Program-made: the position numbers and the translations under genes | Shown: positions 2,278-28,703 of the stretch, one piece after another | How positions within the stretch are numbered: the stretch's first letter is position 1 | Layout: each line of letters begins with the position of its first letter | Source: Anaerolineae bacterium | Lineage (GTDB): Bacteria; Chloroflexota; Anaerolineae; Epilineales; JAHCIE01 | DNA: 64,000 nt | Assembly: GCA_039810085.1 (NCBI GenBank) | Contig: JBDHWG010000009.1 | Span: 12,609-76,608 of the forward strand | Direction: 5' to 3' | The notes under the pieces: generated by a model | Databases searched by the model: none | What the model saw: only the letters and a program-made list of their open reading frames with translations | What the model was told of the DNA's origin: nothing

Positions 2278-2336
2278 TGCCTTTCAGCCACTATTATAAC
2301 ACGCGGCAGCTACCGCTGGCTTTCTTCCGATCCGGA

Positions 2337-4343: not shown

Positions 4344-4358
4344 GCTGTTGAGGAGAAT

Positions 4359-5678: not shown

Positions 5679-5679
5679 T

Positions 5680-7380
5680 CTATGATCGGAATGTAGCCAT
5701 CAACGGATCAACCTGATCGGTCACAACCGATTCCTGGCGTTGCGTCAAAAACAACTGAAGAGATGGTCGCAAAACGGTCATATACCAGTCCATCAGGTCT
5801 GGTTTATCCTTGATGTCGACGAAATGGGCGTGTCCGATTGGATACTTGGTCAACTCGGTGATCTGCCGCATGACGGCAACGATCTCCATTGCATCGTCCT
5901 CTGTGAATGTACTGTGATCCACAAGAAAATCAAACATCTGCTTGTAGCTAACGGCAAAATCGACAGTGCGAAATCGGGAGAGCAATGCGTAGTCGAGTGG
6001 GTACGTCAAGCGGTCGAGTGTGTTCATGGTTGCAATGAGCAGCAGTTGTTTGGGGATGACAATGTTGCCCCCGCCGTGTGGTAGCGGCAAAGACGTGCCC
6101 CGATAGCCCATCTCGATCAGATGAAACCCCTCTCCAAAGACGGCTGCAACATTGGCCCGATTCAGTTCTTCAATGATCACCACTGATGGTCGATCAGCAT
6201 TACGCTGACAATGCCGAAGAAACAGTCCGGGTTCAGCGGCGAAGTCGAGCGCACCTTGGGTCAGTTTCGGTGTGAGACGTTGGATAAAATCGCCATACCG
6301 CCATTCTTGATGAAACTGGACATGGAGAACGCGCTCCGCCCAGAGAGCGGGATCTGCTGCCTCGGTCGCCTGAAGGTAATCCTCCGCAATATGGACTGCG
6401 CTATACGACTTGCCCGTTCTGGGAGCGCCCGTCAACAGAACGTTCAGTTGACCCTTCTGGATTATTCGTCGCGTAAGTTCAATTGGATCAGTTGCATGCT
6501 CCTGGCTAATCCCCAGAAGCTGCGCGTTAAATTGCATTTGCGCCATGCTACTTGCCTCTCGTAGTCGGATCTCAAAAGGATCGACCTGGCCAAACAAGAT
6601 AAGGTGGTTGTATTCCTCTTCGTCACGATCTTGTTCGAAATCGTCTGTCTGAAGGTTAGGGGCTGATGATCGTTGCGTAAAAAGAAAATACAGTTCCTCG
6701 TCCGAAAGCGAGAGTCGTGACCGCACCAAATGCGCAAGCTGGTCAAAGTTCGGCTGGACCTCGAAAACTTCATTACGGCAACACCAAATGACAAATGGAA
6801 TCCAGGGGATACTACAAAGCCTATGCTCATCAGGCCCAAAGAAAATCGGTGCTGCATCAAGGTATTTAGGTCGCAGTCGAAGGCGCGCACCTTGACCTTG
6901 TTCAGCCTCGATAAGCTCGAAGAGAAACTCACGCGGTCTCAAACCGTATCGTTGCTCCTGCTTATCGAACCAATCGTTCTTGAGTCTGGTCCAGATAACG
7001 CTTCGGTTACTGTCCTCTTTGCGCAGGAGATACCGCCGGTTATCACTGATTGGGAAAAATAGGGGGTAGCCAACAGTTCTTGAAACGCCTTGAGGTGCAG
7101 AGGGGAGGGGCGGTTGATTATTCTGAAGGGTGCCATTTTCAACGCTTAATTGCACGAGTGAACTAAATGAGTCGCTGATCCACGCTAGATATCGAAGTGC
7201 GTCCGTCGGCTTGTTCGCTGACGTGATTTTTACCTCGCTGGCAATATTCCCCTCGATTCTAGCACCGTCATACTTCAATGCTAGAAAGACGATGATATCA
7301 CTATGTGCTGTTCCGAAGAGCGAGCGAGCTGCTCGGGCAATGAGTTTTGGTTTCAAGCGAAACACGGGACCGGACCTCAT
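5680..7380 (-). CDS. mcrB: McrB-like AAA+ GTPase subunit of type IV restriction system, with unassigned approximately 300-aa N-terminal DNA-reading domain
   Basis: 566 aa; LLTGAPRTGKS Walker A, VVIIEELNRANVAAVFGEGFHLIE and LLLIATMNTLDRL motifs characteristic of McrB. Confidence 0.85.
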   Translation of the reverse strand: MRSGPVFRLKPKLIARAARSLFGTAHSDIIVFLALKYDGARIEGNIASEVKITSANKPTDALRYLAWISDSFSSLVQLSVENGTLQNNQPPLPSAPQGVSRTVGYPLFFPISDNRRYLLRKEDSNRSVIWTRLKNDWFDKQEQRYGLRPREFLFELIEAEQGQGARLRLRPKYLDAAPIFFGPDEHRLCSIPWIPFVIWCCRNEVFEVQPNFDQLAHLVRSRLSLSDEELYFLFTQRSSAPNLQTDDFEQDRDEEEYNHLILFGQVDPFEIRLREASSMAQMQFNAQLLGISQEHATDPIELTRRIIQKGQLNVLLTGAPRTGKSYSAVHIAEDYLQATEAADPALWAERVLHVQFHQEWRYGDFIQRLTPKLTQGALDFAAEPGLFLRHCQRNADRPSVVIIEELNRANVAAVFGEGFHLIEMGYRGTSLPLPHGGGNIVIPKQLLLIATMNTLDRLTYPLDYALLSRFRTVDFAVSYKQMFDFLVDHSTFTEDDAMEIVAVMRQITELTKYPIGHAHFVDIKDKPDLMDWYMTVLRPSLQLFLTQRQESVVTDQVDPLMATFRS

Positions 7381-7664
7381 TCTGGGGGAGTGTCGGTGTC
7401 GAGAAAATAATCAATTGGCTTGCCGTACAGGGAAGCAAACGCCTCCAATTCGAGGGCATCCACGCGACGCTCGCCATTCTCGGATTTAGAGATAAACGAC
7501 TGGGGTTTGCCAAGCCGCTCAGCGACCTGTTCTTGCGTCAAGCTGGCGTCAAGTCGCGCTTGGCGAAGGCGCTTGAGAAACTGGCGATAGCGGCTGTCGT
7601 AATCCTGAAGGCTCACACCCTGCCTCAAATAGAGTGACATGAGAGTTGGCAAGTTGGCAGGCAT
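7377..7664 (-). CDS. XRE-family HTH transcriptional regulator, translationally coupled to mcrB (ATGA overlap)
   Basis: 95 aa; LTQEQVAERLGKPQSFISKSENGERRVDALELEAFASLYG is a canonical HTH_3 domain. Confidence 0.75.
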   Translation of the reverse strand: MPANLPTLMSLYLRQGVSLQDYDSRYRQFLKRLRQARLDASLTQEQVAERLGKPQSFISKSENGERRVDALELEAFASLYGKPIDYFLDTDTPPE

Positions 7665-7787
7665 TATGGCTCAGGGCAGAATTTATCCCAAGTTGGGATA
7701 TTGCTGATACAGGCAGTAGGATGACGGGCCTACCGACAGCAGCTGGGGGCAATGCACATTCATACTTGACAACGAGAGATAGAAATG

Positions 7788-7812
7788 GTACAACTCTACC
7801 ATGCAAGTTGTA
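7788..7812. promoter_or_regulatory. Inverted repeat GTACAACT-N9-AGTTGTAC upstream of vapB (putative operator)
   Basis: 8-bp perfect arms read in sequence about 22 nt upstream of the vapB RBS AGAGG. Confidence 0.3.
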
Positions 7813-7833
7813 CATGTTATTAGAGGTACAGAC

Positions 7834-8094
7834 ATGAAGGAATACATTAGCAGCGTCAGCCCGAAGGGGCAGATCACTATCCCCGCAGAGATTAGGGAAT
7901 TGCTAGGGATCAAGCCAAAGGATAAAGTGATCTTTGAAATGGGTGAGGAGGGAGTCAAAATCCGTCCTCTCGCTGCTCGGCTTGAAGCGAGCTATCAAGC
8001 GATACCCGCACTTACACCCGCGAGAACGCTCGAAGAGATGATGGAGATTGCTCATGAGGATCACGCACAGGAGGCTGCCCAAGAGGGCTTATAA
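7834..8094 (+). CDS. vapB: AbrB/MazE/SpoVT-type antitoxin (VapB-like)
   Basis: 86 aa from ATG 7834 (RBS AGAGG 8 nt upstream); GQITIPAEIRELLGIKPKDKVIFE swapped-hairpin motif. Confidence 0.75.
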   Translation: MKEYISSVSPKGQITIPAEIRELLGIKPKDKVIFEMGEEGVKIRPLAARLEASYQAIPALTPARTLEEMMEIAHEDHAQEAAQEGL

Positions 8095-8100
8095 CACATT

Positions 8101-8517
8101 ATGGCGGACCACTTTCTGGACACTAACCTCATTATCCGCTACTTGACCAAGGACAATACCGACCAGGCAGCTCGTGCCTATTATGTTTTCCAGAGGCTGG
8201 AGACCGGCCAATTAACAGTCGCAATGTGCGAAGGCGTGCTCATTGAAGCAGTGCAGGTACTTTCTTCCAAACGGCTCTATAATGTTTCGCGTCAAGACAT
8301 TCGCATGCATCTCTCGACCATCATCCAGCTCCAAGGAGTCAAAATCCCCAACAAGCGCACATACCTTCGCGCACTGGATCTGTACGCTTCAACAACTCTC
8401 GATTTTGTTGATGTGCTGATTGTCGCCCATATGGAGCGCACGAAGGTACGCAGCGTCCTTAGTTTCGACCAGGGCTTTGACAGTATCACGGGAATCAGCA
8501 GACAGGAACCCGAGTAG
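8101..8517 (+). CDS. vapC: PIN-domain toxin VapC
   Basis: 138 aa; FLDTNLIIRYL...VDVLIVAHME...SFD PIN acidic residues; 6-bp gap after vapB. Confidence 0.8.
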   Translation: MADHFLDTNLIIRYLTKDNTDQAARAYYVFQRLETGQLTVAMCEGVLIEAVQVLSSKRLYNVSRQDIRMHLSTIIQLQGVKIPNKRTYLRALDLYASTTLDFVDVLIVAHMERTKVRSVLSFDQGFDSITGISRQEPE

Positions 8518-8711
8518 TTGCGGTAAAGACGCGAAGGGATCGATTTTTTGGGACTCTGCTTCATCGTATGAAAGAGCAATGCCAATGTTGCTTGTTACAT
8601 AGTGTCAACATAGGCTGCGGTCACTCTCCCCATCGTTCAGCTGCGAGATAGTAGTGATCTCCACTTTGACCGAGGCTAATCAGTCCGGTATGAAAGGATG
8701 TTCTACAAAGA

Positions 8712-9977
8712 ATGGCCGCTCGCCTCTGGAAAGACGATAAACGAGCTGCGGTCCAGAAGGATATTTCCTTCCTACTCTCTGCCTACAATGGAACAGGTTG
8801 GAATGTCACCGTCGAGAACCGACTGGCAATGACTGAGTTAGGATGCTCCATTGACGGCACAAAACTCGAAAGAAATGTGGTGATGCAAGTCCTCCAGCAG
8901 ATGATAGCTGAACAAAAAACGAGTATTGACGACTTTGAGATTGTTCTAGAACAAGTAGTTCACGAACATGAACATCGCCGGCGAGCACAGGTCGGTAAGT
9001 GGACGTTCTTCATCCCTATTGAACTTGATGTAGCAGCAGACATTCCCCTTCCCACTACTCTACGTGTTTTTGGCAGGGATTTTGTGTTCCAGACACAAGC
9101 CGCGGTACGAGAACAAATGGATGCTGAAGCACTAGGGGAAATGCTACTGCGGTGGAAGTTCTATAACTCGTGGGAAGATATCCACCTGCCAGCCTGGTTC
9201 ATCTCTATTTCGACGTACGAGGCCGAATGGAATGCTGCCTGGAAGGACATCGAGCCAGCGTATGATGTATTCCGAGGTCTGATCGAGTTCACGCTCTGTT
9301 TTGGACCAACAGGATGGTCTTTCCCCCAACGAGAAGAGCCGCGTAGAAAAATACCGCATCCGTTATGGATGATTGCCAGCAAAGGTCGGCTTGCACTGGA
9401 GCCTATTCTGTTTGAGGCTGACGAATACCCTCTTAAAGAACGGTTTACTCTGACCCCAGATTGGCTGAACGCAATCTTGGAAAATGGCAAAGCTCTGCGC
9501 GAGCTTCCCGCAAAAAACTCAACCTTATCAGTTCTAGCGGACGCTCTCCGTCTATACGCGATAGCTATGGATGCACGTTCCAACTATGCCTGTTTCTTAG
9601 GATTATGGCAGATGGTAGAGGCAATCACGCGTTCAGAGACGACGAGAGGTAAGTCTGATGAGGTCGTCTCACGCCTAAGCTGGCATCGAGAGCGTATGAA
9701 ACTACCCACCTCCGGTTATGCAGCAATCCTAAAGCGACTGGCGGACAAGCGCAACAATCTTGTCCACAGAGGTATTCATGACATTACCCACGACGACGTA
9801 ATGTTCATGAAGTTCTTCGGCGACATAGTGCTTGTTTGGCTTCTGGGAGTTTACACATCCTTGCCAACCAAAACACATCTGGATGAGTTCTATAGATTGC
9901 GCTCTCAAGGAAAATACAGCGTTCGGGCAGCAAAGGAGACCGCTCAGTATCTCGAAGATTTCACCCAGGCTGAATAG
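8712..9977 (+). CDS. Hypothetical 421-aa protein with C-terminal HEPN-like Rx4HG motif (KRNNLVHRG)
   Basis: Rx4H motif embedded in predicted helical C-terminal approximately 120 aa; no other recognisable family; N-terminal 300 aa unassigned. Confidence 0.5.
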   Translation: MAARLWKDDKRAAVQKDISFLLSAYNGTGWNVTVENRLAMTELGCSIDGTKLERNVVMQVLQQMIAEQKTSIDDFEIVLEQVVHEHEHRRRAQVGKWTFFIPIELDVAADIPLPTTLRVFGRDFVFQTQAAVREQMDAEALGEMLLRWKFYNSWEDIHLPAWFISISTYEAEWNAAWKDIEPAYDVFRGLIEFTLCFGPTGWSFPQREEPRRKIPHPLWMIASKGRLALEPILFEADEYPLKERFTLTPDWLNAILENGKALRELPAKNSTLSVLADALRLYAIAMDARSNYACFLGLWQMVEAITRSETTRGKSDEVVSRLSWHRERMKLPTSGYAAILKRLADKRNNLVHRGIHDITHDDVMFMKFFGDIVLVWLLGVYTSLPTKTHLDEFYRLRSQGKYSVRAAKETAQYLEDFTQAE

Positions 9978-10032
9978 ACCCCCTCGGATGAAAGGAAACG
10001 ATTACCCTTGACCGGTTGCACAAGGTACAGCC

Positions 10033-11082
10033 TTACTGCGGCGTGAACGAGGTCCTCGCAGTATATAACGTACCGTTATATGTGACCTGCACGCCTATTG
10101 AAACTGTATAGCCAAGTGAAGCCCGCCCTATGTTGCGTGAGCAGCTTGCAAGCCCGTCGCTGCCCGTCACCCCATCGCATGATGAGGTCGTGGTCTTGTA
10201 GTTCCATACGGTGTGCATCGGCAGGCTTTCCACGCCGCGGCCGTTGTCGATCAGGCGCCCGTAGACCGTCTCTGTCGAATTCTGTGAGGGTGAAGCGTTC
10301 GAAACACTGGCACAGAGTTGGATGCTCCCTTGCTGTGTGCAAAGAAGATTCTGTCCTGGCGGTTGCGGCACCGCTGTTGGCTCCGGTGAGTTGGTTGATG
10401 TTGGTCGTGGGGTGCTGCTGGGGGTTTCGCTTGGAGATGGCGGCGGAAGGGGTGTCTCGGTTGGGGTCGGCGTGTTGGTCGGCAACATGATTGGCGAGAA
10501 TGCAGCACGTTGGATATAGGGAAGATATAACGGATAGGCGGTTGGGCTGATGGTGGCCGTTGGGGTAATCACTGGCGCGTCTGACCACTGGTAGAGAGGA
10601 TGCAACTCAGCCCATCCACCGTGCTCCAAGTCGAGCACATAGCGCCCTTGCATTACGACGTGCTGACCAATAGATGGGAACGGTCCGCTCATGGGGTGTG
10701 GGTCAGCAGCACAAACGGGGATCGCCGGCGCATAAGTTGGACTAATGACACAGACCGGCTCGACAACCAGGTCACCATGTTGGTTCGCATTGGCTGATGT
10801 AAGGTAATGCTGATAGGGAGGATCAAGCGTCACTCTGATGTGAAGGTCGCCGTCGTCCTCCTCAATAACGTTGGCAACCATCCCGCTCATTGTCAGACAT
10901 TGGTCGAGAACTTGGAGCCGGTCGGGATGATAGACGTAATTGTCCTGGTCGTTCGAGGTGCAGTCGGTTCTAGGAGCCGCCGTGAGCGGGAGTGTGGAGA
11001 GCGCAAGCCCATAGATGGCTAGACCGATTAGTCCAAGAAGGAGAAGACGAAGCATAATTTGGCGCATTGGAAGATCTCTCAT
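10033..11082 (-). CDS. Secreted/membrane-anchored protein with N-terminal signal/TM segment and Pro/Thr-rich linker
   Basis: 349 aa; N-term LRLLLLGLIGLAIYGLALSTLPLTAAP hydrophobic; TPTPTETPLPPPSPSETPSSTPRPTSTNSPEPT linker; Cys-containing flanking domains. Confidence 0.6.
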   Translation of the reverse strand: MRDLPMRQIMLRLLLLGLIGLAIYGLALSTLPLTAAPRTDCTSNDQDNYVYHPDRLQVLDQCLTMSGMVANVIEEDDGDLHIRVTLDPPYQHYLTSANANQHGDLVVEPVCVISPTYAPAIPVCAADPHPMSGPFPSIGQHVVMQGRYVLDLEHGGWAELHPLYQWSDAPVITPTATISPTAYPLYLPYIQRAAFSPIMLPTNTPTPTETPLPPPSPSETPSSTPRPTSTNSPEPTAVPQPPGQNLLCTQQGSIQLCASVSNASPSQNSTETVYGRLIDNGRGVESLPMHTVWNYKTTTSSCDGVTGSDGLASCSRNIGRASLGYTVSIGVQVTYNGTLYTARTSFTPQ

Positions 11083-11130
11083 GACTTACGTTCTGGGGAG
11101 TATAAATAAGTCTCACCCTGGAGTGAGGAA

Positions 11131-12588
11131 ATGGACGCATCCTTTCAGCAAATCAAAACCAATTTCCGTACGCTGCTCGTCGCCGCAGTAGACGAGGGTC
11201 TTGAACATGTTGCGCAGGTAATGAGTGACAGCAGATGGATCGGAACCTACTTCCAATGGCCGGTGATGTCGAAGTGGGAAAGCGGTCTTCCGAGTTTTAG
11301 ACTAAGTCAATTTGAAGGCCCGAAAGATTACAGCATGTTATTCACCGGCCCTGATCCAATAATCGATGCTGATACACTCAAATCATTCCAAGCGCTTGTG
11401 TCATACGTTAAGCAAGAGCCATTTTTGCAGGACAGGCTACTCCCAGTGACAGTGGGTCAGGACAGGCAGGGCGTTATCGAGGATGAGCGTCTTGTCCGGA
11501 TATTCGTGTACCAAATCCTCGAAGCGCTCATTGACCGATATATTCATACACACGCAAGAACCACCTTTGACATGACGGCGTTTGAGGTTGTTTACGAACC
11601 GTATGCCCGATATTTGTTCGAGGAGCAACTCTTAGCAGATATATATGTGCCAATCCTTTTTCTGAAATTTGCTGATGATACCATCACGATAGACGAAAAC
11701 ACAGCGATTGAGCGAATGAGCGATGCATTTCAGCTAGCACGCGCTCCTCTCAAAGCGTATGGGCCAGGTGTCCATGAAGCAGTTATGGGGGCAGCAACCC
11801 ACGCTCTAGTGCTTCGAAATTGGCCGGTCCGCAACGGGAACACGTGGGAGTTCTTACAGCGCCTTACAGAAGTGAGTGTATACCCGCTGGATGACATAGA
11901 CAACTTCTTCGCGGCTGTGAGAATTGTCACGGGCTTCGAAACGGGTTACGCACAACTGCTTGTGAACCCTAAGGGGTGGGCGGCTCACTATAAAGCTGAC
12001 CTCCCTCCGATTGAGGGAACGTCAAGACGAGCCTACCCTAATCGGTTCGAGAATTTCTACTGGCTAAGAAAAGAGGTGCCTGAGATAAACAAAGCAGGTG
12101 CTCAAGAAATAGGTCGTGTGTTCCTGAAGTTACTCCAAATTAAGGGAAATTCCGTGCAGATTGCCGCGAGACGGTTGAATCTTTGCTATCTCCGTGAGCA
12201 TGAAGAGGACTATATTCTTGACGCTACTATTGCGCTTGAAGCTCTTTTCTCTGACGATGAGCGAACAGAGATGACCCACAAACTAGCCTTGAGAGTTGCA
12301 GCACTAGCAACCATCTCCGACGTGTTTCGGCGCCCCCCAAAGCAAGTGTTTCGTGAGGTGAAGCAAATTTACGGGTATAGATCAGCCGTCGTCCATGGTA
12401 GCAAAAAGACTGACCGAGCACGAGACATTACGGTACATCATACGCAACGAGTACCCGCAGGTACTCTGGCCGTAGAATATCTCCGTCATGCATTGCTTAT
12501 CTTGATTGACCATCCCCAATATCGAGAGCCATCGCGCATTGATGAGGATTTGTTGCTTGGCAAAGGCGTCGATGAGCAATCTACATAA
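11131..12588 (+). CDS. Hypothetical 485-aa protein with C-terminal HEPN-like Rx4HG motif (YRSAVVHGS)
   Basis: Motif and surrounding helical pattern parallel the 8712-9977 protein; N-terminal region unassigned. Confidence 0.5.
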   Translation: MDASFQQIKTNFRTLLVAAVDEGLEHVAQVMSDSRWIGTYFQWPVMSKWESGLPSFRLSQFEGPKDYSMLFTGPDPIIDADTLKSFQALVSYVKQEPFLQDRLLPVTVGQDRQGVIEDERLVRIFVYQILEALIDRYIHTHARTTFDMTAFEVVYEPYARYLFEEQLLADIYVPILFLKFADDTITIDENTAIERMSDAFQLARAPLKAYGPGVHEAVMGAATHALVLRNWPVRNGNTWEFLQRLTEVSVYPLDDIDNFFAAVRIVTGFETGYAQLLVNPKGWAAHYKADLPPIEGTSRRAYPNRFENFYWLRKEVPEINKAGAQEIGRVFLKLLQIKGNSVQIAARRLNLCYLREHEEDYILDATIALEALFSDDERTEMTHKLALRVAALATISDVFRRPPKQVFREVKQIYGYRSAVVHGSKKTDRARDITVHHTQRVPAGTLAVEYLRHALLILIDHPQYREPSRIDEDLLLGKGVDEQST

Positions 12589-12781
12589 CGATGGTTGTTG
12601 CGTCAATCCTGATAGTCTTAATTTCGAAAAAAGGGACCAATATGAGGGTAGAGCAGAGAAGGCGACGCGCGTTGCGCAACATGGACGGCAACACCGTCGC
12701 GTTTCCACCTCTCTTTTCCATCCTCTGGTCCCTAGAATCATTCTCTGATCACCTCCTCTTGCGGTTGTGGTCGTTCATCGG

Positions 12782-13336
12782 TTATATCAGCCCCAACTCC
12801 GACAGCCACGACTTGCAGCCGTGTTCACAGATGCCGTCTGGTTCCACGGTGCAGCCATCGGTGGCCTCGCACTCGCCGTCCATCATCCACTCCATCAAAG
12901 TTTCCAAGTCTGGGACTTGCCGACGTTCATCGTTGAACGTGCTCACCCACAAGTGGGTGTTGGGATCCCAAGACATGCGGAAGCGTGGCTTCGGTGGATA
13001 TTCAAGAAAGCGCCTGAGCACGATCTCAATGTCCGCCATAAGTGGCGCCTGAACGATATGCACATACCGCCGGCTGGATTGCTCGATGTACATCTGACAA
13101 GCCACGGCTCGCGTGCCGTCCTCAGTCACCTGTAGGAGCTCGTACCCGCCAAAGGTCTCCTCAACGTCGCCAAGCCATGCGGGGTCCGCTGGCTGCGGTC
13201 TATCAACAACAAGCAACCCAACGAGCCAATCACGACGGCCGGGCTGCATCGCTAGGCCATAGCCGGAGAAGATATCCGGGACGTCGGGATGCCAAAGCCC
13301 GTAAACGGGGTCATTGGTCGAGGTCGCAAGCGTCAT
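12782..13336 (-). CDS. Hypothetical protein (184 aa, Cys-rich C-terminus)
   Basis: Last gene of a tightly coupled 4-gene minus-strand operon (ATGA overlap with upstream gene). Confidence 0.45.
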   Translation of the reverse strand: MTLATSTNDPVYGLWHPDVPDIFSGYGLAMQPGRRDWLVGLLVVDRPQPADPAWLGDVEETFGGYELLQVTEDGTRAVACQMYIEQSSRRYVHIVQAPLMADIEIVLRRFLEYPPKPRFRMSWDPNTHLWVSTFNDERRQVPDLETLMEWMMDGECEATDGCTVEPDGICEHGCKSWLSELGLI

Positions 13337-13545
13337 CGTTCCTCCTGAAGTGTGATGTTGATCGCCGCGGCGATCTCGGGTGGGAGATCATCGAGTGATT
13401 GCGTGTATTCCAGACCGATATAGTCGTCTCCCCAATTCGCTTCGTCGAGGTCGACCACGGCAAACATGACGGGGTTATCGCCGCAGAACACCGCAGCCAC
13501 GATGCCGTTCTCGACCTCAATCACGATCTGCGGCACATCATTCAT
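13333..13545 (-). CDS. Hypothetical small acidic protein (about 70 aa, start MNDVPQ)
   Basis: Start ATG overlaps stop of upstream gene (GATGAATGA); acidic composition. Confidence 0.4.
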   Translation of the reverse strand: MNDVPQIVIEVENGIVAAVFCGDNPVMFAVVDLDEANWGDDYIGLEYTQSLDDLPPEIAAAINITLQEER

Positions 13546-13768
13546 CAAGTTCCTCCTTGAGTATTGGCAGTCGAATACGGAACGTGTAGGACACAACGAG
13601 GTCGGCGTCCAGCTCCTCATCTGGTTGGACCACACCACGTTGTAGGTCGAATAGCAGGTTCTCAATCGCCTCCTCTCGGTCTTCTGCTTCGTTGTTGACC
13701 ACGACAACGGTCGCATCGGACCGCTTCAACTCATCCAGCATCTGTAGCGCCGTTATGGTTCGGATCAT
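13538..13768 (-). CDS. Hypothetical small acidic protein (about 76 aa, start MIRTITAL)
   Basis: 1-nt gap to upstream gene; internal start chosen over long ORF extension. Confidence 0.4.
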   Translation of the reverse strand: MIRTITALQMLDELKRSDATVVVVNNEAEDREEAIENLLFDLQRGVVQPDEELDADLVVSYTFRIRLPILKEELDE

Positions 13769-13769
13769 C

Positions 13770-14126
13770 TCAGTAGTCCTCCGGGAGCAAAATGGTTGTG
13801 ACTGAGCGATCCGCCTCGGTGATGACGTAGATCTTCGTCCCCGTTCTGAGGTGATAGGCACTCAAGATCCGAAAGCCCCGTTTGACGGACAATTCGTTCT
13901 CCGCCTTGTCCTCGTCATCGAGGTCTCCCCAATCACCACCAATATGGCGGCCGAGAAACTCCGCAGGGTGTTGCCCTGCCTCCTCTAGCGCCGCTAAGGC
14001 GCCAGGGGTAGCCACAATCTGGCCGAGGTCAAAGAGCTGTCTTGCCATAGATAGGTCTCCTTTGGGCAGAATGCCCGGTAGGTAATCTACTACCCCCGAA
14101 ATGGAGTAGCGCCCCGAGAACCTCAC
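13770..14126 (-). CDS. Conserved hypothetical protein (118 aa) of a type recurrently seen on plasmids/ICEs
   Basis: Motifs LGRHIGGDWGDLDDEDKAENE and KIYVITEADRSVTTILLPEDY; family not assigned with certainty. Confidence 0.45.
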   Translation of the reverse strand: MRFSGRYSISGVVDYLPGILPKGDLSMARQLFDLGQIVATPGALAALEEAGQHPAEFLGRHIGGDWGDLDDEDKAENELSVKRGFRILSAYHLRTGTKIYVITEADRSVTTILLPEDY

Positions 14127-14290
14127 GAAGAGATACCCAGAGCGCTACACCAACTGGGAAAGAAGCTATTCAGGTTCACCGCAAGGTTTCAAGGTGCAGA
14201 AATCAATGTGTGTCAGAAACGCAACAATCAGAGAGCCATCTCCCTGGTGTTACAGTCTCAAACACTCTCCAGTATATCCTGTTTCAGAAC

Positions 14291-14875
14291 TCAAAATCCC
14301 AGGCCACGCTCTTTCAGACTTGTGAAACCGCTTCGGCCAACAACAATGTGGTCGAGCAACTCCACTTCAAGGATCCGCCCGGCTTCAACTAGGGTCTTGG
14401 TCACCCGAACGTCATCTCTGCTGGGCGTCACATCGCCCGATGGGTGATTATGAACCATGATAATGGCGTGGGCGTTGTCGAGAATGGCCGGCCGAAACAC
14501 CTCAGCGGGGCGAACGGGGCTGCTATTGAGGGTGCCCTGGTACACCATCGGACAGGAGATGATCCGGTTCTTGGTGTCGAGTGTAATGACGCGGACCTGT
14601 TCTTGGTCAAGATCCTCCATCTCAACCCGAACAAATTCATAGGCATCACGGGGACTGGTGATCTGAAGTGCATCCTCCCGAGGTCGCCCGGTCTTTGCCT
14701 CATAAAGGCGTGAGGCTTCGGCGATAAACCAGCGTAGGAGGTGGACAAACTCGGCTTCATCGGGCCGCAAGAAACTCATTTGGGCTTCATGGACTCGTCG
14801 GACTCGTCGTTCTTGGGGCAGCGGCATAGTCGAGCCAGTATAGCATATGGGGTGTAGGACTGGTGTTGATATCAC
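14291..14875 (-). CDS. radC: RadC-like JAB/MPN domain protein
   Basis: 194 aa; JAMM motif HNHPSGDVTPSRDD and C-terminal LKERGLGF; start uncertain (GTG 14875 or ATG 14827). Confidence 0.8.
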   Translation of the reverse strand: MISTPVLHPICYTGSTMPLPQERRVRRVHEAQMSFLRPDEAEFVHLLRWFIAEASRLYEAKTGRPREDALQITSPRDAYEFVRVEMEDLDQEQVRVITLDTKNRIISCPMVYQGTLNSSPVRPAEVFRPAILDNAHAIIMVHNHPSGDVTPSRDDVRVTKTLVEAGRILEVELLDHIVVGRSGFTSLKERGLGF

Positions 14876-15068
14876 GAGTTAGTGCTCGGGACCTCCCCGA
14901 TGGGCGGGCCTCCACCTGACAAACGGGCAAGGCGTATCCGCGTGAGAGACGACCTTACAATCCGTTCTCGGGTGGAAGTATAGGAACTCATCTCTCATCC
15001 GGCGATTGGCGTCGTTGCTTGTGTGTTGACTACCGTCAGTCTTGGTGGAATCATACGGATGAGGTTGT

Positions 15069-15353
15069 GTGGCGAGGTCACGAGAAAAAGGGGGGGCTGT
15101 GGGGTTCGTCGCTGTGTTCGCGATCCTGCTGGTTGGTGGCTTCATTGCCAGCAGATTACACGGTCGTATCGTGGTCAGCAATCTAGCGATCTCCATCGTT
15201 TCGATTGCTCTGCTGCTGCTCGTCTACCTGATGCTCGCAAAGCTCATACTACCGGCGGTCTGGCCAAGCGCTGATGTCATCTCGACGCTGTTATTGACGA
15301 TTGTGATTGTAGGGCTCCTCTCGCGTGGTATCTTTCGGTGGCCGGGTATGTAG
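15069..15353 (+). CDS. Possible small membrane protein (94 aa, about 3 hydrophobic helices)
   Basis: Only hydrophobicity pattern; no family. Confidence 0.2.
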   Translation: MARSREKGGAVGFVAVFAILLVGGFIASRLHGRIVVSNLAISIVSIALLLLVYLMLAKLILPAVWPSADVISTLLLTIVIVGLLSRGIFRWPGM

Positions 15354-15554
15354 AGGGCGTGATTGAGGTACGTTTCTCGTGTAGCGGGTCGCCGTGTACA
15401 AGATGGTTCTGTTGCGCCAGAGCTGCCGCACTCCGCTCTCTCACTCCTCGTTAGTCGCCTATCGGCTCCCTCCTCGTCGTTCGCTCGCTCCGTTTGACCT
15501 TGGTAGGGTTGATGCAATGTATGACTAACCACGTACAGACGGGATATTGACCAT

Positions 15555-16535
15555 GTGACTTATAATGTCTGCATGACTACAGAACATGGTCGCCAAGTCT
15601 ATGACGAACAATTTAAGGACGAAACAGTACGGGCTCTCGGTGAAAGTGGAATGACACTTACTGCATTTGCTCGGGTTCGAGGGATACCACGAACAACCTT
15701 GTGGGATTGGAAACACGGAGGCATTCAGGGAGAAGAAGCTGTAGGAAGTCCAAGAAGCCTCCTATCCACTGAAGATGGGGAACGACTGCCAACTCGTCCT
15801 AAATTAGGTATATTTATTGACGACGAACCACTCAAATTTAAAAAATGGGAGAGAGTTTTTACACTGGAAGGCTTTGAAAGTCTCACTCCAGATCAAATGC
15901 TCCATGATGGCATGTCGGATACTCAAACTATTCAAGCTTTAGATCAATGGATGGATTTACTAATTCATCTTCCTGACCGAGCTCTCAAAGATGTTGAGAT
16001 TGTGGTCATCGATCAGTTCAATTTCTCTCAGTATCTACAGATGAAAGCAAAACACTTAATAAATCGACTTCGTAGCGTTAACACAATGGCATGGGTTTTG
16101 GAAACTAGTGGAGTGGTTGAGCCACATGTATATGAGGGAACAAATGCTGTTCTTGACGCGCTTGATACCACTCAGGCAATTGACCTAGTAGAAGATGCTC
16201 CATTAACTTTATCAGCTCGTATTCAAGCATTTAAAATATTTACATTGACCCCATTCCTTGAAGCACAAAAGGCCGATACAGTAAATGATGATGAAAAATA
16301 TAGTCCTTCGGAAGGATTGAACAAATTAATAAGTCACAGGAAATTCAATGAAGCACTGGCTGCTATAGGGATATCTGAGAGAGAGTTTTTTAGCATTTTA
16401 GCACTTAAGCGAGATGATGACCTGCGCCCTATTGTGCATGATTTAGGGAATCTCATGGGGCATATGATACTTGATCATGGTGATGAATATTACACAATGT
16501 CGGTAGACAAGCTGCGACGGCTTCTTCGAAGGTAA
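15555..16535 (+). CDS. Hypothetical protein with N-terminal IS3-OrfA-like HTH (HTH_Tnp_1-like) fused to an unassigned AT-rich-encoded domain
   Basis: 326 aa; YDEQFKDETVRALGESGMTLTAFARVRGIPRTTLWDWK resembles IS3/IS911 OrfA HTH; remainder of gene markedly AT-rich relative to surroundings. Confidence 0.5.
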   Translation: MTYNVCMTTEHGRQVYDEQFKDETVRALGESGMTLTAFARVRGIPRTTLWDWKHGGIQGEEAVGSPRSLLSTEDGERLPTRPKLGIFIDDEPLKFKKWERVFTLEGFESLTPDQMLHDGMSDTQTIQALDQWMDLLIHLPDRALKDVEIVVIDQFNFSQYLQMKAKHLINRLRSVNTMAWVLETSGVVEPHVYEGTNAVLDALDTTQAIDLVEDAPLTLSARIQAFKIFTLTPFLEAQKADTVNDDEKYSPSEGLNKLISHRKFNEALAAIGISEREFFSILALKRDDDLRPIVHDLGNLMGHMILDHGDEYYTMSVDKLRRLLRR

Positions 16536-16588
16536 TTCTTCTGACCAGCGCAATTCTTCTGGACGGCTCGGCAGGTCGTCATTCTGCT

Positions 16589-16987
16589 TTACCGTCGTGC
16601 CCATTGTTCCAGTGTATCTATGACACGTTTGATAGCCGAAACGCACCTTTGTGCATCGCTTACCGACACGTCACGCTCTGCGTTATGAATAATGTTGTTC
16701 CTCTTCTTGATGGCCTCAGCAACGACTTCAATATCGGTCTCATTTATACCTGCTAGTCCTTTGATCGTGCCAAGGCCAATGTTCACAAACGCGCTTAGCC
16801 CCATGTGTTCAATGAGTTTATCGAGGTGGTCCTGATTGAGCGAGGAAGCACCTGGAAGCCGGGTGATGGCCGTCGGAGCAACTTGTCGTGCAGTTGCCTC
16901 CAATGCTATGACAGCCTCTATAATCGCTATACGTCCGTTGCCTTCCTCTAGGTGGCTAATACTATTCGCTATAAGAACCTCACGCAC
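16589..16987 (-). CDS. Small HEPN-motif protein (KKRNNIIHN, Rx4H)
   Basis: 132 aa, all-helical; Rx4H motif near C-terminus as in HepT/DUF86-like HEPN toxins. Confidence 0.5.
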   Translation of the reverse strand: MREVLIANSISHLEEGNGRIAIIEAVIALEATARQVAPTAITRLPGASSLNQDHLDKLIEHMGLSAFVNIGLGTIKGLAGINETDIEVVAEAIKKRNNIIHNAERDVSVSDAQRCVSAIKRVIDTLEQWARR

Positions 16988-17101
16988 GGGAGGCTTCTTG
17001 TTACTGTCAACAAGTTGTTGAAGCTCCTGCCAGTTCGTGCTACCTAGTGGAGTCGATAACCTGGTGCCTACTTTTGCCCCTGCTCGGGAACCGATCTCGT
17101 G

Positions 17102-17644
17102 CTATTCGTGCTCGCTGTAGTAAGTCAAGCCAACATCGCCTATCCTTCTCATCGGAGGTTCAAAAACCAATGGACGCCATTTGCCATCTTCATCTAGCCA
17201 GAGTGAATGACCACAACTGTTAAATAGTTCGACGTATGGGCTTACTGGATCAACCGGGAGCGTCTCAAGCCAGTATTGTTTCAGGACGTTTCGAACGTAA
17301 CCTGCGAAGCGGTTGTAGGTTGTCGAGACAATCACCCAGACCAGCCGATAAAACTCCTTTAGCTCGTCAGTTATCTCGCCATCTCGAAGTGCTTGTATTA
17401 CTCTGGCATTTGGTGTCGGAAGATCTGTTTCGATAACGAGATCGTGCCAAAAATAGGCGGTTTGATCGGTCGGATCGTCGGTGTAGAGGATATTGCCTGA
17501 AGGCGCTCGGACAGAGAGCCAAACGGAGTATATTCCATTCTCGATGGTGAACTGCAATCGATTAGTTTCTACGAGTGGATCAGAAGGTGAGATCCACAAG
17601 GACTCCCACAGCATGAGGGATATCTTCAACTGCATGGTTGTCAC
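17102..17644 (-). CDS. Hypothetical protein (180 aa), upstream partner of small HEPN gene
   Basis: No recognisable motif (no GSx9-13DxD nucleotidyltransferase signature). Confidence 0.45.
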   Translation of the reverse strand: MTTMQLKISLMLWESLWISPSDPLVETNRLQFTIENGIYSVWLSVRAPSGNILYTDDPTDQTAYFWHDLVIETDLPTPNARVIQALRDGEITDELKEFYRLVWVIVSTTYNRFAGYVRNVLKQYWLETLPVDPVSPYVELFNSCGHSLWLDEDGKWRPLVFEPPMRRIGDVGLTYYSEHE

Positions 17645-17707
17645 CTGGCTTTAGTGAACGGAGAGCTCAAGCCGTAATTATAGCCTCGCCTCACGAATTG
17701 TCGAAGG

Positions 17708-18001
17708 TTAGGTGGTCTGATGCTGCCTCTTGAGTTCGTCTAGGCGCTCCAAAATCCACATACGAGCCAATGTGGTTGGCCCAATCCCTTTCTTTTTCGC
17801 CAGAGTGCGGAGTTCCTCCAATGTATCTGGGTCAAGCCGAACGGTCACACCGCCAGAGAGATTCTTGGCAAACCTAACATCTACGGGCTTCCATTGATGC
17901 CAGTAGTCAGTAAAGCTATGCGTATCCCAAAACGCTGCCTCTTCCTCCCTAGTTTTGAAGTCTGGGATTGGCAGTGATGTCTTCTTTGATGTATCGGTCA
18001 T
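17708..18001 (-). CDS. brnA: BrnA antitoxin (CopG/RHH-like)
   Basis: 97 aa; DPDTLEELRTLAKKKGIGPTTLARMWILERL typical of BrnA. Confidence 0.75.
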   Translation of the reverse strand: MTDTSKKTSLPIPDFKTREEEAAFWDTHSFTDYWHQWKPVDVRFAKNLSGGVTVRLDPDTLEELRTLAKKKGIGPTTLARMWILERLDELKRQHQTT

Positions 18002-18285
18002 GCTGCGTGTTCACCCCCTTTGTCTCTTTGGTAATCTCTTCTCTCTTTCTTATCTGCGGATCGAGCGGTGACGGGATAATAAACGCCCTGACCCTCTGGA
18101 TCGAGAACAACGGCAAGCATACGTCCATCGAGCGTTGGCCCAATGACCATAATGCGCCCTTTGTAGCTCTCGCGAATGATATAATCGCCCTGGCAAACAT
18201 CTTCAACGTCCTGCTGTGTGACCCCGTGCCGTGCAATATGCTCCGTGTTCCAGGTATCCCAAAGAAGGCGAGCAATGACTATCAT
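17998..18285 (-). CDS. brnT: BrnT toxin (RelE-like fold, DUF497)
   Basis: 95 aa; WDTWNTEHIARHGVTQQDVEDV...RIMVIG...RMLAVV typical BrnT; ATGA overlap with brnA. Confidence 0.75.
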   Translation of the reverse strand: MIVIARLLWDTWNTEHIARHGVTQQDVEDVCQGDYIIRESYKGRIMVIGPTLDGRMLAVVLDPEGQGVYYPVTARSADKKERRDYQRDKGGEHAA

Positions 18286-18287
18286 AC

Positions 18288-18318
18288 AACGAACGCATCA
18301 TAACATAATGCGTTCGTT
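18288..18318. promoter_or_regulatory. Inverted repeat AACGAACGCAT-N9-ATGCGTTCGTT immediately upstream of brnT start (putative operator)
   Basis: 11-bp perfect arms read in sequence, 3 nt from brnT ATG. Confidence 0.3.
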
Positions 18319-18652
18319 GAAACAAGGGGTTCGGTTGTACTCTATGTCGCCTAATGCTCATTTTACGTCATGAGGGCATAGTGGGGTTTTAGGCGTTGGG
18401 ATGAGGTTTTTTCAATTATGGAGAAGACGGGCGCAAGAGGGATGAGCCGAGTTTCAACCTATAACCGTCGGTCGAGCTGGCTCTAGGCCACAAAAAAAGA
18501 GAACTGACGACAGGAAGACTTGGGAGTAAAGAGAGCGCGTTTCGCGCAGAAGCACCAGTTGGCGCACTCTTCGTCCATTGTCGATCCTTTTTCTTGTCGT
18601 AGTTCTCTTTCTTCAGCGCTCCAAGCGCTGACCTCATTCCTCGCGGATGATT

Positions 18653-19471
18653 TTACTCGGCCGGGGTCGCGCCCGCGTTCTGATCGCGCATGTGGTTCTC
18701 AAGGATCTCCACAAGAAGGTGGACTTCAGCAGAACTGAGGAGGTACCACCACCCGGCAAGGTTGACCACTTTGGTAGCAGTCTGAGTAGTAGGCTCGTCT
18801 TCGCCCCGGAAAACGCTCATCGTCGCCCTCCTCTCATCCAGAGCCTTCCCAAGCTTCACTTGGAGGTCCGCATCCAGAAGGTACTCCTTGCCCTGGAGGG
18901 TGATCGTCACATGTGGGGGCTGAAGCGTCTCGGGGATCTCGAAGGGCTCGATGATCTCGTTCTCCCTCTCGGTCTTGAGTCTGAGCGCCCATGGCTCCCA
19001 ACTCTCCCAGAGGTCGGAGATGATCTTGTTGTCCGGGGTGCGCTTCCGCGGCAGCTTGTTCTCCTTCAGAGGTGTATCGAGGTAGGTGTGAAAGATGTCC
19101 GGTATGCGCGTCGGCGTGTACTTGTTGTTCTCGTACACGCTTTTCTCAATCAACGCGTTGATCAGCACCTGTTGGCTCGGACTGGCAGAGTCATAGATTT
19201 CGAGCATCGATGAGATCAGGTCGAAAGTGGAGGGACCGGCCTCCTCATCGGCGTTGATGCCTAGCGCCTTCTTCTCCACCAGGTCGACCTCCAGCTCATA
19301 TGAGATCACCACCTTTCCGCGCACGGTCTGCACCTCTCCCGCTTTGATTCTGCGGTTGAGCTCCTCTCTGGAGATCCCCAGGTGATTCGCCGCCTCATTC
19401 AAAGTCATGTTCTTGCTATCTACCGCCGTCATAGCCATCGCTGTCTCCTTCGGGCATTCTGCCCTTTGCAT
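18653..19471 (-). CDS. Hypothetical protein with N-terminal HTH_17/MerR-excisionase-like HTH
   Basis: 272 aa; MTLNEAANHLGISREELNRRIKAGEV; remainder unassigned. Confidence 0.5.
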   Translation of the reverse strand: MQRAECPKETAMAMTAVDSKNMTLNEAANHLGISREELNRRIKAGEVQTVRGKVVISYELEVDLVEKKALGINADEEAGPSTFDLISSMLEIYDSASPSQQVLINALIEKSVYENNKYTPTRIPDIFHTYLDTPLKENKLPRKRTPDNKIISDLWESWEPWALRLKTERENEIIEPFEIPETLQPPHVTITLQGKEYLLDADLQVKLGKALDERRATMSVFRGEDEPTTQTATKVVNLAGWWYLLSSAEVHLLVEILENHMRDQNAGATPAE

Positions 19472-19869
19472 GTTGTTACTGTCCCAAATAGAACAGCGCC
19501 CAGAGACCTCATTGTGAGATATCCAAGCGCTGTCCTATTCAGGCAAGGAGACGGTTGAACCGATTGAGTCAATTATTTGTCCGCAAAGAATTAATGTGCA
19601 TGCAAAACAGAGAAACATCTGAGACGCACTGCCTCTGTTTCTCAATCCGCAACCTCATATTATACCCTATAGTCTGATTTATGTCAATACCAACTCCCTC
19701 TCGTTCCCTACAGTCCCCCCTCTTCCTAACCACAGTCGAGGCAAAACCACCCCTATGGCCTCCACTTCCCCGCTCTCATCTTCCTGGCAGCGGCCACACT
19801 GACTGCCTGCGGCAGTCAGACCTCTTCGGCAAACCGCCGAAGGAGCACCCGGAGCCCGAAGCGCCGTAG

Positions 19870-20140
19870 CGGAGCCGTCCTGTGGCGAAGCGGTCAGCCG
19901 GAGCGAGCAAGCGACCGGCGCGAAACGAGCGGGGTACAAGCGGACGAGGCCAGGCGAGCAGTCTGACGAGGTTCGGGGAGTCAGTCTGCGAGCCGACTAG
20001 GGCCGAAGGCCGCAGCCCGCGAGTGCAGCAGAGGAAGCAGCGAGCGAAGGCCAGCGAAGCCACGAAGACCGGCGCAGTGGAGGCGCGAAGGGTCGCCGCG
20101 AAGCGAGCGAAAGCCCCGTGCTAACGGGGCTTCAGAGGGC
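19870..20140. repeat. GC-rich non-coding tract with at least 6 GCGAAG/GAGCGAA motif repeats and several hairpins
   Basis: Direct reading: GGCGAAGCGG, GCGAGCGAAGGCC, CAGCGAAGCC, GCGCGAAGGG, CGCGAAGCGAGCGAAAGCC; hairpins CTGACTGCC-TGC-GGCAGTCAG (about 19797) and GCCCCG-TGCTAA-CGGGGC (about 20115). Confidence 0.3.
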
Positions 20141-20275
20141 GCGGACGGAGGCGGTAGCTGGTTTGCCGGCTGTCAATACGTGTGTATACTCAGAGGTGAG
20201 GCCACTATCACATCTGGAACCGGATGGTTGTCCGAAACGGCACGGCAATTTGAGAGACCACATTGCGTATCAAAC

Positions 20276-20620
20276 ATGGTGATGCTGGAAATGTCGCTGC
20301 TCGACCATGAGCAGCTGCGCGTTTTGCTGCTCGACACAAAGAACAAGGTGCATGGCATTGTCACTGTCTATAAAGGCACAGTCAACAGTAGCCAGGTGCG
20401 CGTCGCCGAGGTATTCAAGGACGCCGTGCGCCACAATCACCCAGCGATCATCGTCGTCCACAACCACCCGTCGGGCGACCCGACGCCGAGCCGTGACGAC
20501 GTGCGCGTGACGCGAGAAATGGTGCAGGCGGGCGAGCTGCTGGGCATTAACGTGCTGGACCACATCGTCATCGGCCAGCAGAAGTTCGTCAGCATGAAAG
20601 AGCGCGGGCTAGGCTTTTGA
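20276..20620 (+). CDS. radC: RadC-like JAB domain protein, N-terminally truncated paralog
   Basis: 114 aa from ATG 20276; [18 protein letters not shown]...MKERGLGF, roughly two-thirds identical by eye to 14291-14875 product over the JAB domain. Confidence 0.7.
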
Positions 20621-20625
20621 CAGAT

Positions 20626-21282
20626 TTACGTCGATGACTTTTCGATGTCCGTCTTAGTCAGCATTTCCGACGCGTGGAGGATGAGTTCGACGCAGCGGTC
20701 TTCGCCCAAGAGCGACGTGTTCAACACGAAGTGGAACGGGCTGGGGTCGTGCCAATCAGCGTGGTAGAACTGGCGCAGGTAGTTGGCACGCCGCGTGTCT
20801 TCCTGGCGAATGTACTTCTCCGCCTCCGCCTGCTTCCAGTTGCGCAGCCGCATCATGCGCTGGACCCGGTAGGCGAGGGGCGCGATGCACTGGACGTGCA
20901 AGACACCTGGCTCGCCCGCCAGGACAAACTGCGAGCCGTGCCCGAAGATGACGACGTTGCCATGCTTCGTCGCTTCCCGAATCATCTGTTGCGTGATTTG
21001 CACTTCCTGCTGCGCCGGCGACTCAAAATCGACCGATACCTGCCCCATGTCCATCGGCACCAGGGTGGTGTTCGAGAGCCACATCACGCGGGTTAGACGG
21101 TCGATGAACGAGTCAGCGCGCTCTTCGCGCGCCTGCGCCGCCTGCTGCGAAATGCCCAGCCGACGGGCGACTTCCTGCACAATCTGGGTGTCGAGGTATT
21201 CCGCCCCCAGACGCTCGGCCACCTTCTGACCAATCGACTGTCCACCACTTCCCGTATAACGCGAAATCGTGATAACTGGCAT
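20626..21282 (-). CDS. Cytidylate kinase-like family protein (AAA_33-type P-loop)
   Basis: 218 aa from ATG 21282 (RBS AGGAAGGA); N-term MPVITISRYTGSGGQSIGQKVAERLG. Confidence 0.7.
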   Translation of the reverse strand: MPVITISRYTGSGGQSIGQKVAERLGAEYLDTQIVQEVARRLGISQQAAQAREERADSFIDRLTRVMWLSNTTLVPMDMGQVSVDFESPAQQEVQITQQMIREATKHGNVVIFGHGSQFVLAGEPGVLHVQCIAPLAYRVQRMMRLRNWKQAEAEKYIRQEDTRRANYLRQFYHADWHDPSPFHFVLNTSLLGEDRCVELILHASEMLTKTDIEKSST

Positions 21283-28666: not shown

Positions 28667-28703
28667 CAAGACCTGACAGGTTTTGGAAACCTGTCAGGTC
28701 TTG
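28667..28703. repeat. Perfect 37-bp palindrome CAAGACCTGACAGGTTTTGGAAACCTGTCAGGTCTTG in the 68-bp intergenic gap between two GT-C genes
   Basis: 17-bp arms read directly; core shared with 39372-39400. Confidence 0.5.

Follow-up and report, generated by a model that had tools for sequence, protein, structure and literature searches.

The gene radC is an attachment gene of mobile elements: it is used by the Tn554-family elements of staphylococci, which leave a 3′ radC remnant (bioRxiv 10.1101/2020.09.30.320143), and by the integrative and conjugative elements (ICEs) and integrative and mobilizable elements (IMEs) of Mesorhizobium (PMC8627217). A comparable arrangement is found in a stretch of 64,000 nt from an Anaerolineae bacterium (contig JBDHWG010000009.1), which is referred to here as the window and whose positions are used throughout. 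Here, a genomic island interrupts radC, the 3′ remnant of the gene, comprising the JAB domain, lies at the element's end, and host synteny continues beyond it. The locus differs from the Tn554-family and Mesorhizobium elements in its Chloroflexota (Anaerolineae-like) host, in that no Tn554-type or other recombinase genes were seen in the 20 kb covered, and in being inserted at the boundary between the N-terminal and JAB domains of radC instead of at the 3′ end. Its contents are also unlike theirs, and include McrBC, a methyltransferase, toxin–antitoxin pairs and a replication module. The subject of this analysis is the 709-bp interval at 19472–20180 (read within 19000–20700), which lies between the last gene of the island and the radC remnant and which a first-pass annotation had described as a non-coding tract with a repeat array and stable hairpins at the island border.

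The interval is genuine non-coding DNA inside a mobile island that split radC. It is a composite of three parts: positions 19472–19690, which are ordinary promoter and leader DNA of the neighboring gene for a helix-turn-helix (HTH) protein; positions 19691–20170, an orphan GC-rich block of 480 bp; and positions 20171–20272, the last ~100 bp of inserted DNA, where the composition is island-like again. For the middle part we tentatively favor, at a probability of about 0.4, the reading that it is a discrete, foreign, non-coding insert of 480 bp with a 9-bp duplication, placed in the island's terminal intergenic region.

The block (19691..20170, read on the plus strand) is set apart by its composition, with 68–69% GC compared to 45–49% in the flanks. 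Its 5′ ~100 nt are C-rich (C 49.5%, G 10%) and the remaining ~380 nt are purine-rich and T-poor (T 7–9%, G 40%). When GC content was fitted with three segments, the change-point for the right boundary fell exactly at 20170 and that for the left boundary within 19688–19791, where the solutions near the best include 19694–19696. An exact 9-bp direct repeat, TGTCAATAC (direct repeat D13), abuts both edges of the block. The left copy is at 19682..19690 and contains the minus-strand −35 hexamer of the HTH promoter, while the right copy is at 20171..20179. This is the arrangement expected of a target-site duplication and its significance is modest: the chance of an exact 9-mer pair falling within both boundary ranges is estimated as ~104 × 41 / 4^9, or ~0.016.

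According to this reading, the block would have come in by one insertion event, duplicating 9 bp of target, TGTCAATAC. It could be what remains of a small, non-autonomous mobile element or else a fragment captured from a GC-rich donor, and its perfect palindromes and CGAAG-rich purine tract would have arrived with the element as its own cis-sites. Two side effects would follow. The DNA upstream of the HTH promoter would have been shifted 480 bp away, and an outward −35-like hexamer, TTGCCG, would have been set 16 bp from TATACT, before the JAB-only radC remnant. The resulting promoter-like site, TTGCCG-16-TATACT (20163..20190, plus strand), straddles the right edge of the block and faces the remnant; at 9/12 it is a consensus match only. 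The empty site would be expected to read ...GATTTATGTCAATACGTGTGTATAC..., and the empty-site locus in a relative of the island ...CTGATTTATGTCAATACGTGTGTATACTC....

Several observations weigh against an insertion. By chance, the 851-nt region is estimated to hold about 1.4 exact 9-mer pairs, and the GC boundary on the left is loosely placed, within 19688–19791. Terminal inverted repeats were not found, with an end-anchored P of 0.28 and a local P of 0.11 relative to shuffles. No second copy of the block occurs in the window, in 778 kb of related radC loci from genomes and metagenomes, in PLSDB, in INPHARED or in four IMG/VR pattern scans, and because none was found anywhere in the sequences searched, the mobility of the block is unproven. 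No empty-site allele was seen among the metagenomic contigs, all of which are 100% identical to the window. In addition, the strand-specific CGAAG enrichment and the perfect palindromes, which are described below, hint at a function that a relic leaves unexplained. The probability is set no higher than 0.4 because none of the features that define a mobile element (inverted repeats, other copies and the empty site) was found in the sequences searched.

The closest described elements of this size are miniature inverted-repeat transposable elements (MITEs). Like these, the block is small (480 bp), non-coding, sharply bounded, bracketed by a 9-bp exact direct repeat and intergenic beside a promoter. 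Unlike these, it has no terminal inverted repeats, no other detected copy and no identified partner transposase. The earlier suggestion of a degenerate MITE cluster gains limited support from the direct repeat at both block edges, and what is seen is a single block.

The hairpins of the block are real. Three perfect stem-loops were proposed from the sequence and all three were recovered, the third being longer than had been described: hairpin 1, CTGACTGCC-TGC-GGCAGTCAG, at 19799..19819 (9 bp, loop TGC); hairpin 2, CTTCGGC-AAACC-GCCGAAG, at 19824..19842 (7 bp, loop AAACC); and hairpin 3, AAGCCCCGT-GCTA-ACGGGGCTT, at 20111..20132 (9 bp, loop GCTA). In 1000 dinucleotide-preserving shuffles of the tract, 0.03 hairpins of 9 bp are expected, compared to the two observed (P=0.007). 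All 25 of the 25 stem pairs are Watson–Crick, which fits DNA palindromes or a young insert better than an evolved RNA. None of the three was called as an intrinsic terminator by the terminator scan; hairpin 3 has no U-tract on the plus strand and only a short TTTCG(CT) tail on the minus strand. An imperfect inverted repeat, CAGTCTGAC-N12-GTCAGTCTG, with one T·T mismatch, lies at 19958..19988 (D12 and I7; also in the minimum free energy (MFE) structure and in the motif search). It has in common with hairpin 1 the half-site GCAGTCWGAC, which recurs at 19958 on the plus strand and at 19980 on the minus strand, so that three of the seven matches in the whole window fall within 180 nt. Judged by their sequence, clustered half-sites of this kind would suit a dimeric DNA-binding protein.

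A second feature of the block is a short motif that is repeated on one strand. GCGAAG occurs five times on the plus strand (19885, 20044, 20054, 20085 and 20098) and GAGCGAA twice. Relative to the same shuffles, GCGAAG is present 5 times compared to 0.8 expected (P<=0.001), CGAAG 9 times compared to 1.7 on one strand (P<0.001) and GCGAAGC 3 times compared to 0.3. Together, CGAAG and CGAAA account for 11 plus-strand sites between 19838 and 20112, with the consensus S-CGAAG-S and the densest part at 20040–20112. The strand ratio of CGAAR within the block is 11:1 in favor of the plus strand, and the CGAAG density of the block is not surpassed anywhere in the window or in the 778 kb of related loci. 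The enrichment noted in the first-pass annotation is therefore above that of shuffles. Its repeat array did not hold up: internal alignment of the tract is no better than that of shuffles and Tandem Repeats Finder returned weak period-10 rows only. The tract shows motif enrichment and is not a true repeat array.

That the interval holds no plausible coding sequence was borne out by every test applied. No frame in 19472–20272 looks coding, as none has a positive codon score under host- or island-trained models; none shows the host pattern of GC3 > GC1 > GC2; and the period-3 power of the tract is in the lowest decile of the window. The one open reading frame (ORF) of note encodes 80 basic amino acids at 19882–20124, with a GTG start, a GGAG 7 nt upstream and a stop codon in the loop of hairpin 3. 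Its product has no Pfam match and no match among 1.84 billion representative proteins. A decayed membrane-protein gene on the minus strand, which was considered as an explanation for the A-poor strand, was rejected, as both a period-3 signal and a GC pattern specific to one frame are lacking.

A structured non-coding RNA (ncRNA), which had also been proposed, fared poorly. Covariance models of Rfam 15 gave no match to the tract at gathering score and, at E<=10, only SNORD23 at 14 bits. Neither tRNA nor tmRNA was found in the tract. The fold of the 401-nt tract has a z of −2.2 on the plus strand and −0.6 on the minus strand; when the C-rich leader is added, z is −0.3 to −1.5, folded as RNA or as DNA. 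A long closing helix that would join the C-rich 5′ end to the G-rich 3′ end was not significant. Among windows of 150 nt, only the segment with hairpins 1 and 2 (19700–19849, plus strand) is significant, at z = −4.3; the folds of the tract interior are on a par with those of shuffled sequences. The promoter scan found no plus-strand promoter upstream of the tract. In our view, the block currently encodes neither a protein nor a structured RNA in its own right.

The interval opens with ~220 bp of promoter and leader DNA of the HTH gene. A consensus sigma-70-type promoter, TTGACA-17-TATAAT (12/12), was found by the promoter scan on the minus strand at 19659..19687, and over 19300–20400 there are four promoter-like sites compared to 0.4 expected. 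Counted from 19687..19659, the mRNA leader of the HTH gene is ~214 nt long. It contains a long hairpin (inverted repeat I3; 19487..19539, minus strand) with 25-nt arms that are 76% complementary and a 3-nt loop, and the 150-nt window at 19450–19599 on the minus strand has a fold z of −5.2. This leader hairpin may serve in attenuation, as an RNase site or as a palindromic operator.

The placement of the tract relative to the host depends on the end of the island. GC content is ~50% over the first 20 kb of the window compared to ~65% over the remainder. Reference genomes were scanned with the RadC ORF and this led to two Anaerolineae loci in metagenome-assembled genomes, L005 and L006, which share synteny with the window on the right side of radC, at 77–82% nucleotide identity over several kb, and in which radC is full-length (236 aa). 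The homology breakpoint with the intact gene, that is, the junction of inserted and host DNA, is at 20258..20280 (plus strand) by blastn, tblastn and residue-level alignment. Individual blastn alignments start at window positions 20285 (L005), 20279 (L006) and 20263 (L014, another radC locus). When the N-terminal domain of RadC was used as a tblastn query, it matched only 20258–20314, and the N-terminal UPF0758 domain was found nowhere in the window by tblastn. As similarity to L005 and L006 begins at ~20258–20285 and the window lacks the N-terminal domain, radC is truly truncated and all DNA to the left of ~20270, including the flagged tract, is inserted. Decayed coding sequence for the RadC N-terminus within the tract was ruled out by three-frame translations and tblastn. 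What remains of the host gene is a JAB-only ORF of 114 aa from a GTG at 20276 (20276..20620, plus strand; Pfam RadC E=2e-40), with 91–92% amino-acid identity to L005 and L006, and the gene call on the metagenomic contig L009 also begins at 20276.

The island is at least 23 kb long, at ~50% GC, and has taken the place of the 5′ third of host radC, with the junction at ~20258–20280. Two earlier descriptions of the tract are modified by this result. An island border is indeed nearby, as the island truncates radC, but the tract lies inside the insert and its first part is promoter and leader. Similarly, a comparison to the full-length genes supports integration into radC, but the tract is not itself the scar. 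A search for the N-terminal fragment of radC and for the left junction gave other organisms only; this heuristic retrieval also missed P0003 and the absence is uninformative.

The join within radC shows no sign of being an artifact of assembly. Independent metagenomic contigs of the same sample series match the window at 100% identity, and among them L009 is continuous across the HTH gene, the tract and radC. At 20458–20487, contigs of independent assemblies terminate or begin: L001 and L003 start at 20458, L009 ends at 20487, and the Logan contigs break there. The 30-mer at 20458–20487 encodes an 11-residue motif and is 97–100% identical in L005 and L006, and identity to these two loci is equal on either side of the break in the assembly graph. 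Because the 30-mer is near-identical and identity is equal on both sides, the break is a k-mer conserved between strains and not a chimeric join. A chimeric assembly was thus ruled out, both by the spanning contig L009 and by the equal identity across the break. As a separate observation, radC fragments assemblies in these samples.

The position of the junction in radC recurs elsewhere. The gene is truncated at one codon in three loci, the window (20258–20280) and the metagenomic loci L014:87–110 and L015:150–175, and both the upstream and the downstream DNA of L014 and L015 are unrelated to those of the window. No significant similarity was seen among these three loci in the DNA upstream of the truncation. 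Among the JGI radC loci with enough upstream sequence, 0 of 76 are truncated and all keep the N-terminal domain. On these sequence comparisons, the boundary between the N-terminal and JAB domains of radC may be a site-specific hot spot in this Anaerolineae clade. Another metagenomic genome carries a split radC at L032:6001–6775, with neighboring ORFs for an N-domain (127 aa) and a JAB domain (129 aa), and the protein collection holds many RadC entries of 120–160 aa with the N-domain only.

Other explanations of the block have to be weighed against an insert with a target-site duplication. One that is possible, if doubtful, is that the block is cis-acting DNA of the island itself, in the arm beside the right attachment junction, where the palindromes and CGAAG motifs would bind a recombinase or a directionality factor, such as the adjacent excisionase-type HTH protein, and would control excision and the divergent promoters. 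The tract adjoins the HTH gene and lies 100–480 bp from the radC junction, its GCAGTCWGAC half-sites cluster, its palindromes are perfectly paired, and radC is both a documented attachment gene (bioRxiv 10.1101/2020.09.30.320143; PMC8627217) and truncated at the same codon in three different contexts. The layout is also that of lambda-type Xis/Int arms, in which non-coding DNA with oriented short repeats and palindromes separates an excisionase-type gene from the junction. Unlike those arms, the tract is longer and its motifs are farther from the junction, at 140–480 bp, which is beyond typical arm sites; in GC content it is foreign to the island; neither an integrase nor a recombinase was recognized in the 20 kb of island seen, and binding is putative only. 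In addition, the leftward walk stopped short of the other island end and gave no core repeat, and the DNA left of the breakpoint shows no significant likeness among the three truncated radC loci. An unlikely alternative is a strand-specific element, either a ~335-nt U-poor ncRNA bracketed by stem-loops (19799–20132, plus strand) or a single-stranded DNA (ssDNA) hairpin region that would serve in priming or transfer after excision, similar to a single-strand initiation site (ssi) or an origin of transfer (oriT). This would account for the 11:1 bias of CGAAR, for T being only 7% on one strand, for the hairpins at both edges of the purine tract and for the plus strand folding slightly better than shuffles. 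The hairpin clusters of plasmids and ssDNA phages, including G4-type ssi, are likewise strand-specific and GC-rich, the tract holds three copies of GCGAAGC, and the island has a replication module. GCGAAGC is a classical hyperstable DNA mini-hairpin and the likeness of the tract to ssi rests on this motif. The island also holds a second GC-rich, T-poor tract with a promoter and a very significant fold, and a plasmid-like contig, L114, carries the hairpin-1 stem in a hairpin array near a Rep_3 gene, as described below. Unlike known ssi and oriT, the tract has no sequence match to any of them, and no relaxase or primase was recognized in the island. The lack of any meaningful Rfam hit, of an upstream plus-strand promoter and of a canonical terminator also speaks against this element, as do the shuffle-like folds of the tract interior and of the extended sequence, the failure of the two tracts to align, and a match to L114 that is close to chance.

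That there is no discrete entity here at all is quite improbable. The block would then be a low-complexity, biased spacer, perhaps a decayed microsatellite of 10–12 nt, and the hairpins and the flanking 9-mer would be coincidental. The weak period-10 arrays, the absence of a significant internal repeat, the absence of a homolog in any collection searched and the estimate that a region this long would hold about one exact 9-mer repeat are all consistent with it, but the motif counts (P<=0.001) and hairpins (P=0.007) exceed those of dinucleotide-preserving shuffles and the right compositional boundary is exactly at the repeat. Very unlikely is a transcription insulator between island and host, in which C-rich RNA would provide Rho-loading sites and GC hairpins would provide pause or termination sites, shielding the HTH promoter and the radC remnant from read-through. 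The C/G ratio is 4–5.8 on the plus strand at 19644–19786, above the window's 99.9th percentile, and 1.5–2.1 on the minus strand at 19866–20203; CUUCG occurs every 8–23 nt on the minus strand, where hairpin 3 is followed by TTTCGCT; and comparable perfect GC hairpins are found after host genes at other places in the window. This case is one of composition, however, with no U-tract terminator called, no evidence of transcription entering from either side, and the sharp boundaries and the flanking repeat left unexplained. Finally, we give almost no credence to the 80-aa basic ORF as a real small protein gene. The frame, the GGAG and the hairpin at the stop codon can be seen in the sequence, but the codon score is negative under host and island models, GC1/GC2/GC3 are flat at 0.64/0.68/0.75, and both the period-3 signal and the protein matches are missing, as stated above.

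The second GC-rich tract lies just outside the window. The island was followed leftward via metagenomic contigs, which added 3 kb (L025) and reached neither the island end nor host synteny. At L025 1100–1597, on the minus strand of L025 and corresponding to window positions of about −755 to −255, the DNA is non-coding, rich in GC and poor in T. This second tract lies downstream of the DnaD/RepA_N-like gene of the island, at a distance of ~350 nt, and in front of it is a promoter, TTGACA-17-TACAAT (11/12), within a palindromic region of divergent promoters. As RNA, it has an MFE of −239.9 compared to −198.3 +/- 6.3 kcal/mol for shuffled sequences (z = −6.6) and a closing helix of 16 bp. It has no Rfam match and no flanking repeat or insertion signature around it. 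As a candidate for a structured RNA, it is far superior to the flagged tract. Homology between the two was considered and rejected, since they have in common only 12-mer and 10-mer words that are non-collinear, with E of 0.2–0.7. It is a long shot that the block and the L025 tract, which lie on opposite sides of the replication module of the island, represent a new class of strand-specific, hairpin-rich cis elements or ncRNAs on integrative, plasmid-like elements of Chloroflexota, which would act single-stranded, as RNA or ssDNA, in replication priming, transfer or control of the island.

The search for relatives also led to L114, an IMG/VR contig (IMGVR_UViG_3300045988_182417). It contains the stem of hairpin 1 with a different loop, followed by a similar second hairpin and GCGAAGCGG. 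At L114:540–760, seven perfect hairpins in tandem, mostly with 3-nt loops, occupy 220 nt and have a DNA fold z of −13. This array is in a non-coding region of 900 nt, 1.2 kb from a Rep_3 initiator with iterons. As a homolog, L114 was rejected: about one chance match is expected in IMG/VR for 18 specified bases and the flanks give P=0.25. No relatives of L114 were found in plasmid or phage collections. Consequently, L114 is best treated as an analogy. The 80 JGI radC loci are all ordinary full-length genes and none has a similar upstream tract.

Within the window, the tract was said to resemble a 64-bp repeat family at 33.9, 50.5 and 59.2 kb. That likeness does not extend beyond the hexamer GCGAAG, as blastn at word size 7 of the tract against the window found nothing at the loci of this family at E<=1. 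The family itself is real and palindromic (33928–33991, 50548–50611 and 59200–59250), with copies that are 89% and 76–78% alike. A 31-nt perfect palindrome, AGACCTGACAGGTTTTGRAAACCTGTCAGGT(CT), has copies at 28669–28701 and 39370–39400 that are 97% identical; one of these is directly 3′ of a minus-strand gene, and the pair looks like a host family of repetitive extragenic palindromic (REP) or terminator type. The tract resembles clusters of REP units, or bacterial interspersed mosaic elements, in that several GC-rich perfect palindromes occur within a few hundred non-coding bp, and in that two of them have a half-site in common, in inverted arrangements. REP units are repeated genome-wide, whereas the 64-kb window yielded no further copies of the units of the tract, and the palindromic families that it does contain differ from them in sequence. 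A SAM riboswitch (RF00162) is present at 58907–59047 on the minus strand, at 85.8 bits.

The island carries defense and plasmid-like genes. Positions 1–19438 encode, in order, an HTH_36/DnaD-like replication protein with RepA_N likeness (73–426, minus strand), an orphan (462–848, minus), an AAA_22/MuB-like ATPase (861–1709, minus), HicAB (~1960–2280, minus), a DUF2321 protein (2446–2940), an N4/N6 methyltransferase (3063–4343), McrC (4359–5678, minus), an McrB-like protein (5680–7380, minus), four large orphan ORFs (8712–13052), a RadC-like JAB protein, a further ORF (15555–16535) and BrnA/BrnT (17708–18285, minus). Integrase, recombinase, relaxase, transposase and primase genes were not recognized among the island genes in window 1–19.4 kb. 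Related islands were sought through the AAA_22 protein, for which IMG/VR gave no relative. The island's own RadC-like JAB gene (14291–14875, minus strand; 194 aa) is 56% identical to the host remnant. On the same strand and ~550 nt upstream of it is a short purine-rich tract, 15420–15495, that contains an exact AGCGAGCGAA, a 10-mer whose only two other occurrences are in the flagged tract. Similarity of the flagged tract to this region amounts to just a 24-nt match at 83% (E=0.12).

The last island gene is the HTH gene itself (18653..19438, minus strand, from the ORF list), an orphan of 261 aa with an N-terminal winged helix of excisionase type (HTH_17). In Pfam, it gave weak matches to HTH_17, at the N-terminus, and to AbiEi_4, and nothing else was recognizable. 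Its match to phrog_66, "excisionase and transcriptional regulator", has an E of 7.5e-4, and it has no homologs among 5.8 billion proteins. In the AF2 model, only residues ~10–45 are moderately confident, with a β-α-α-β-β topology. With a pLDDT of 42, the model is too poor to support a fold search.

On its own, the block matters little: it is orphan non-coding DNA in the island's terminal intergenic region, with no detected relatives and no demonstrable function. If other copies or the empty site were found, a small mobile element type would be documented in Chloroflexota, where, to our knowledge, small non-autonomous mobile elements have barely been described. The tract also led to a better structured-RNA candidate just outside the window. 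Its value is otherwise contextual, in that it fixes the true junction of island and host inside radC, and the breakpoint codon that is shared by three radC loci suggests a site-specific hot spot like att554 of staphylococci.

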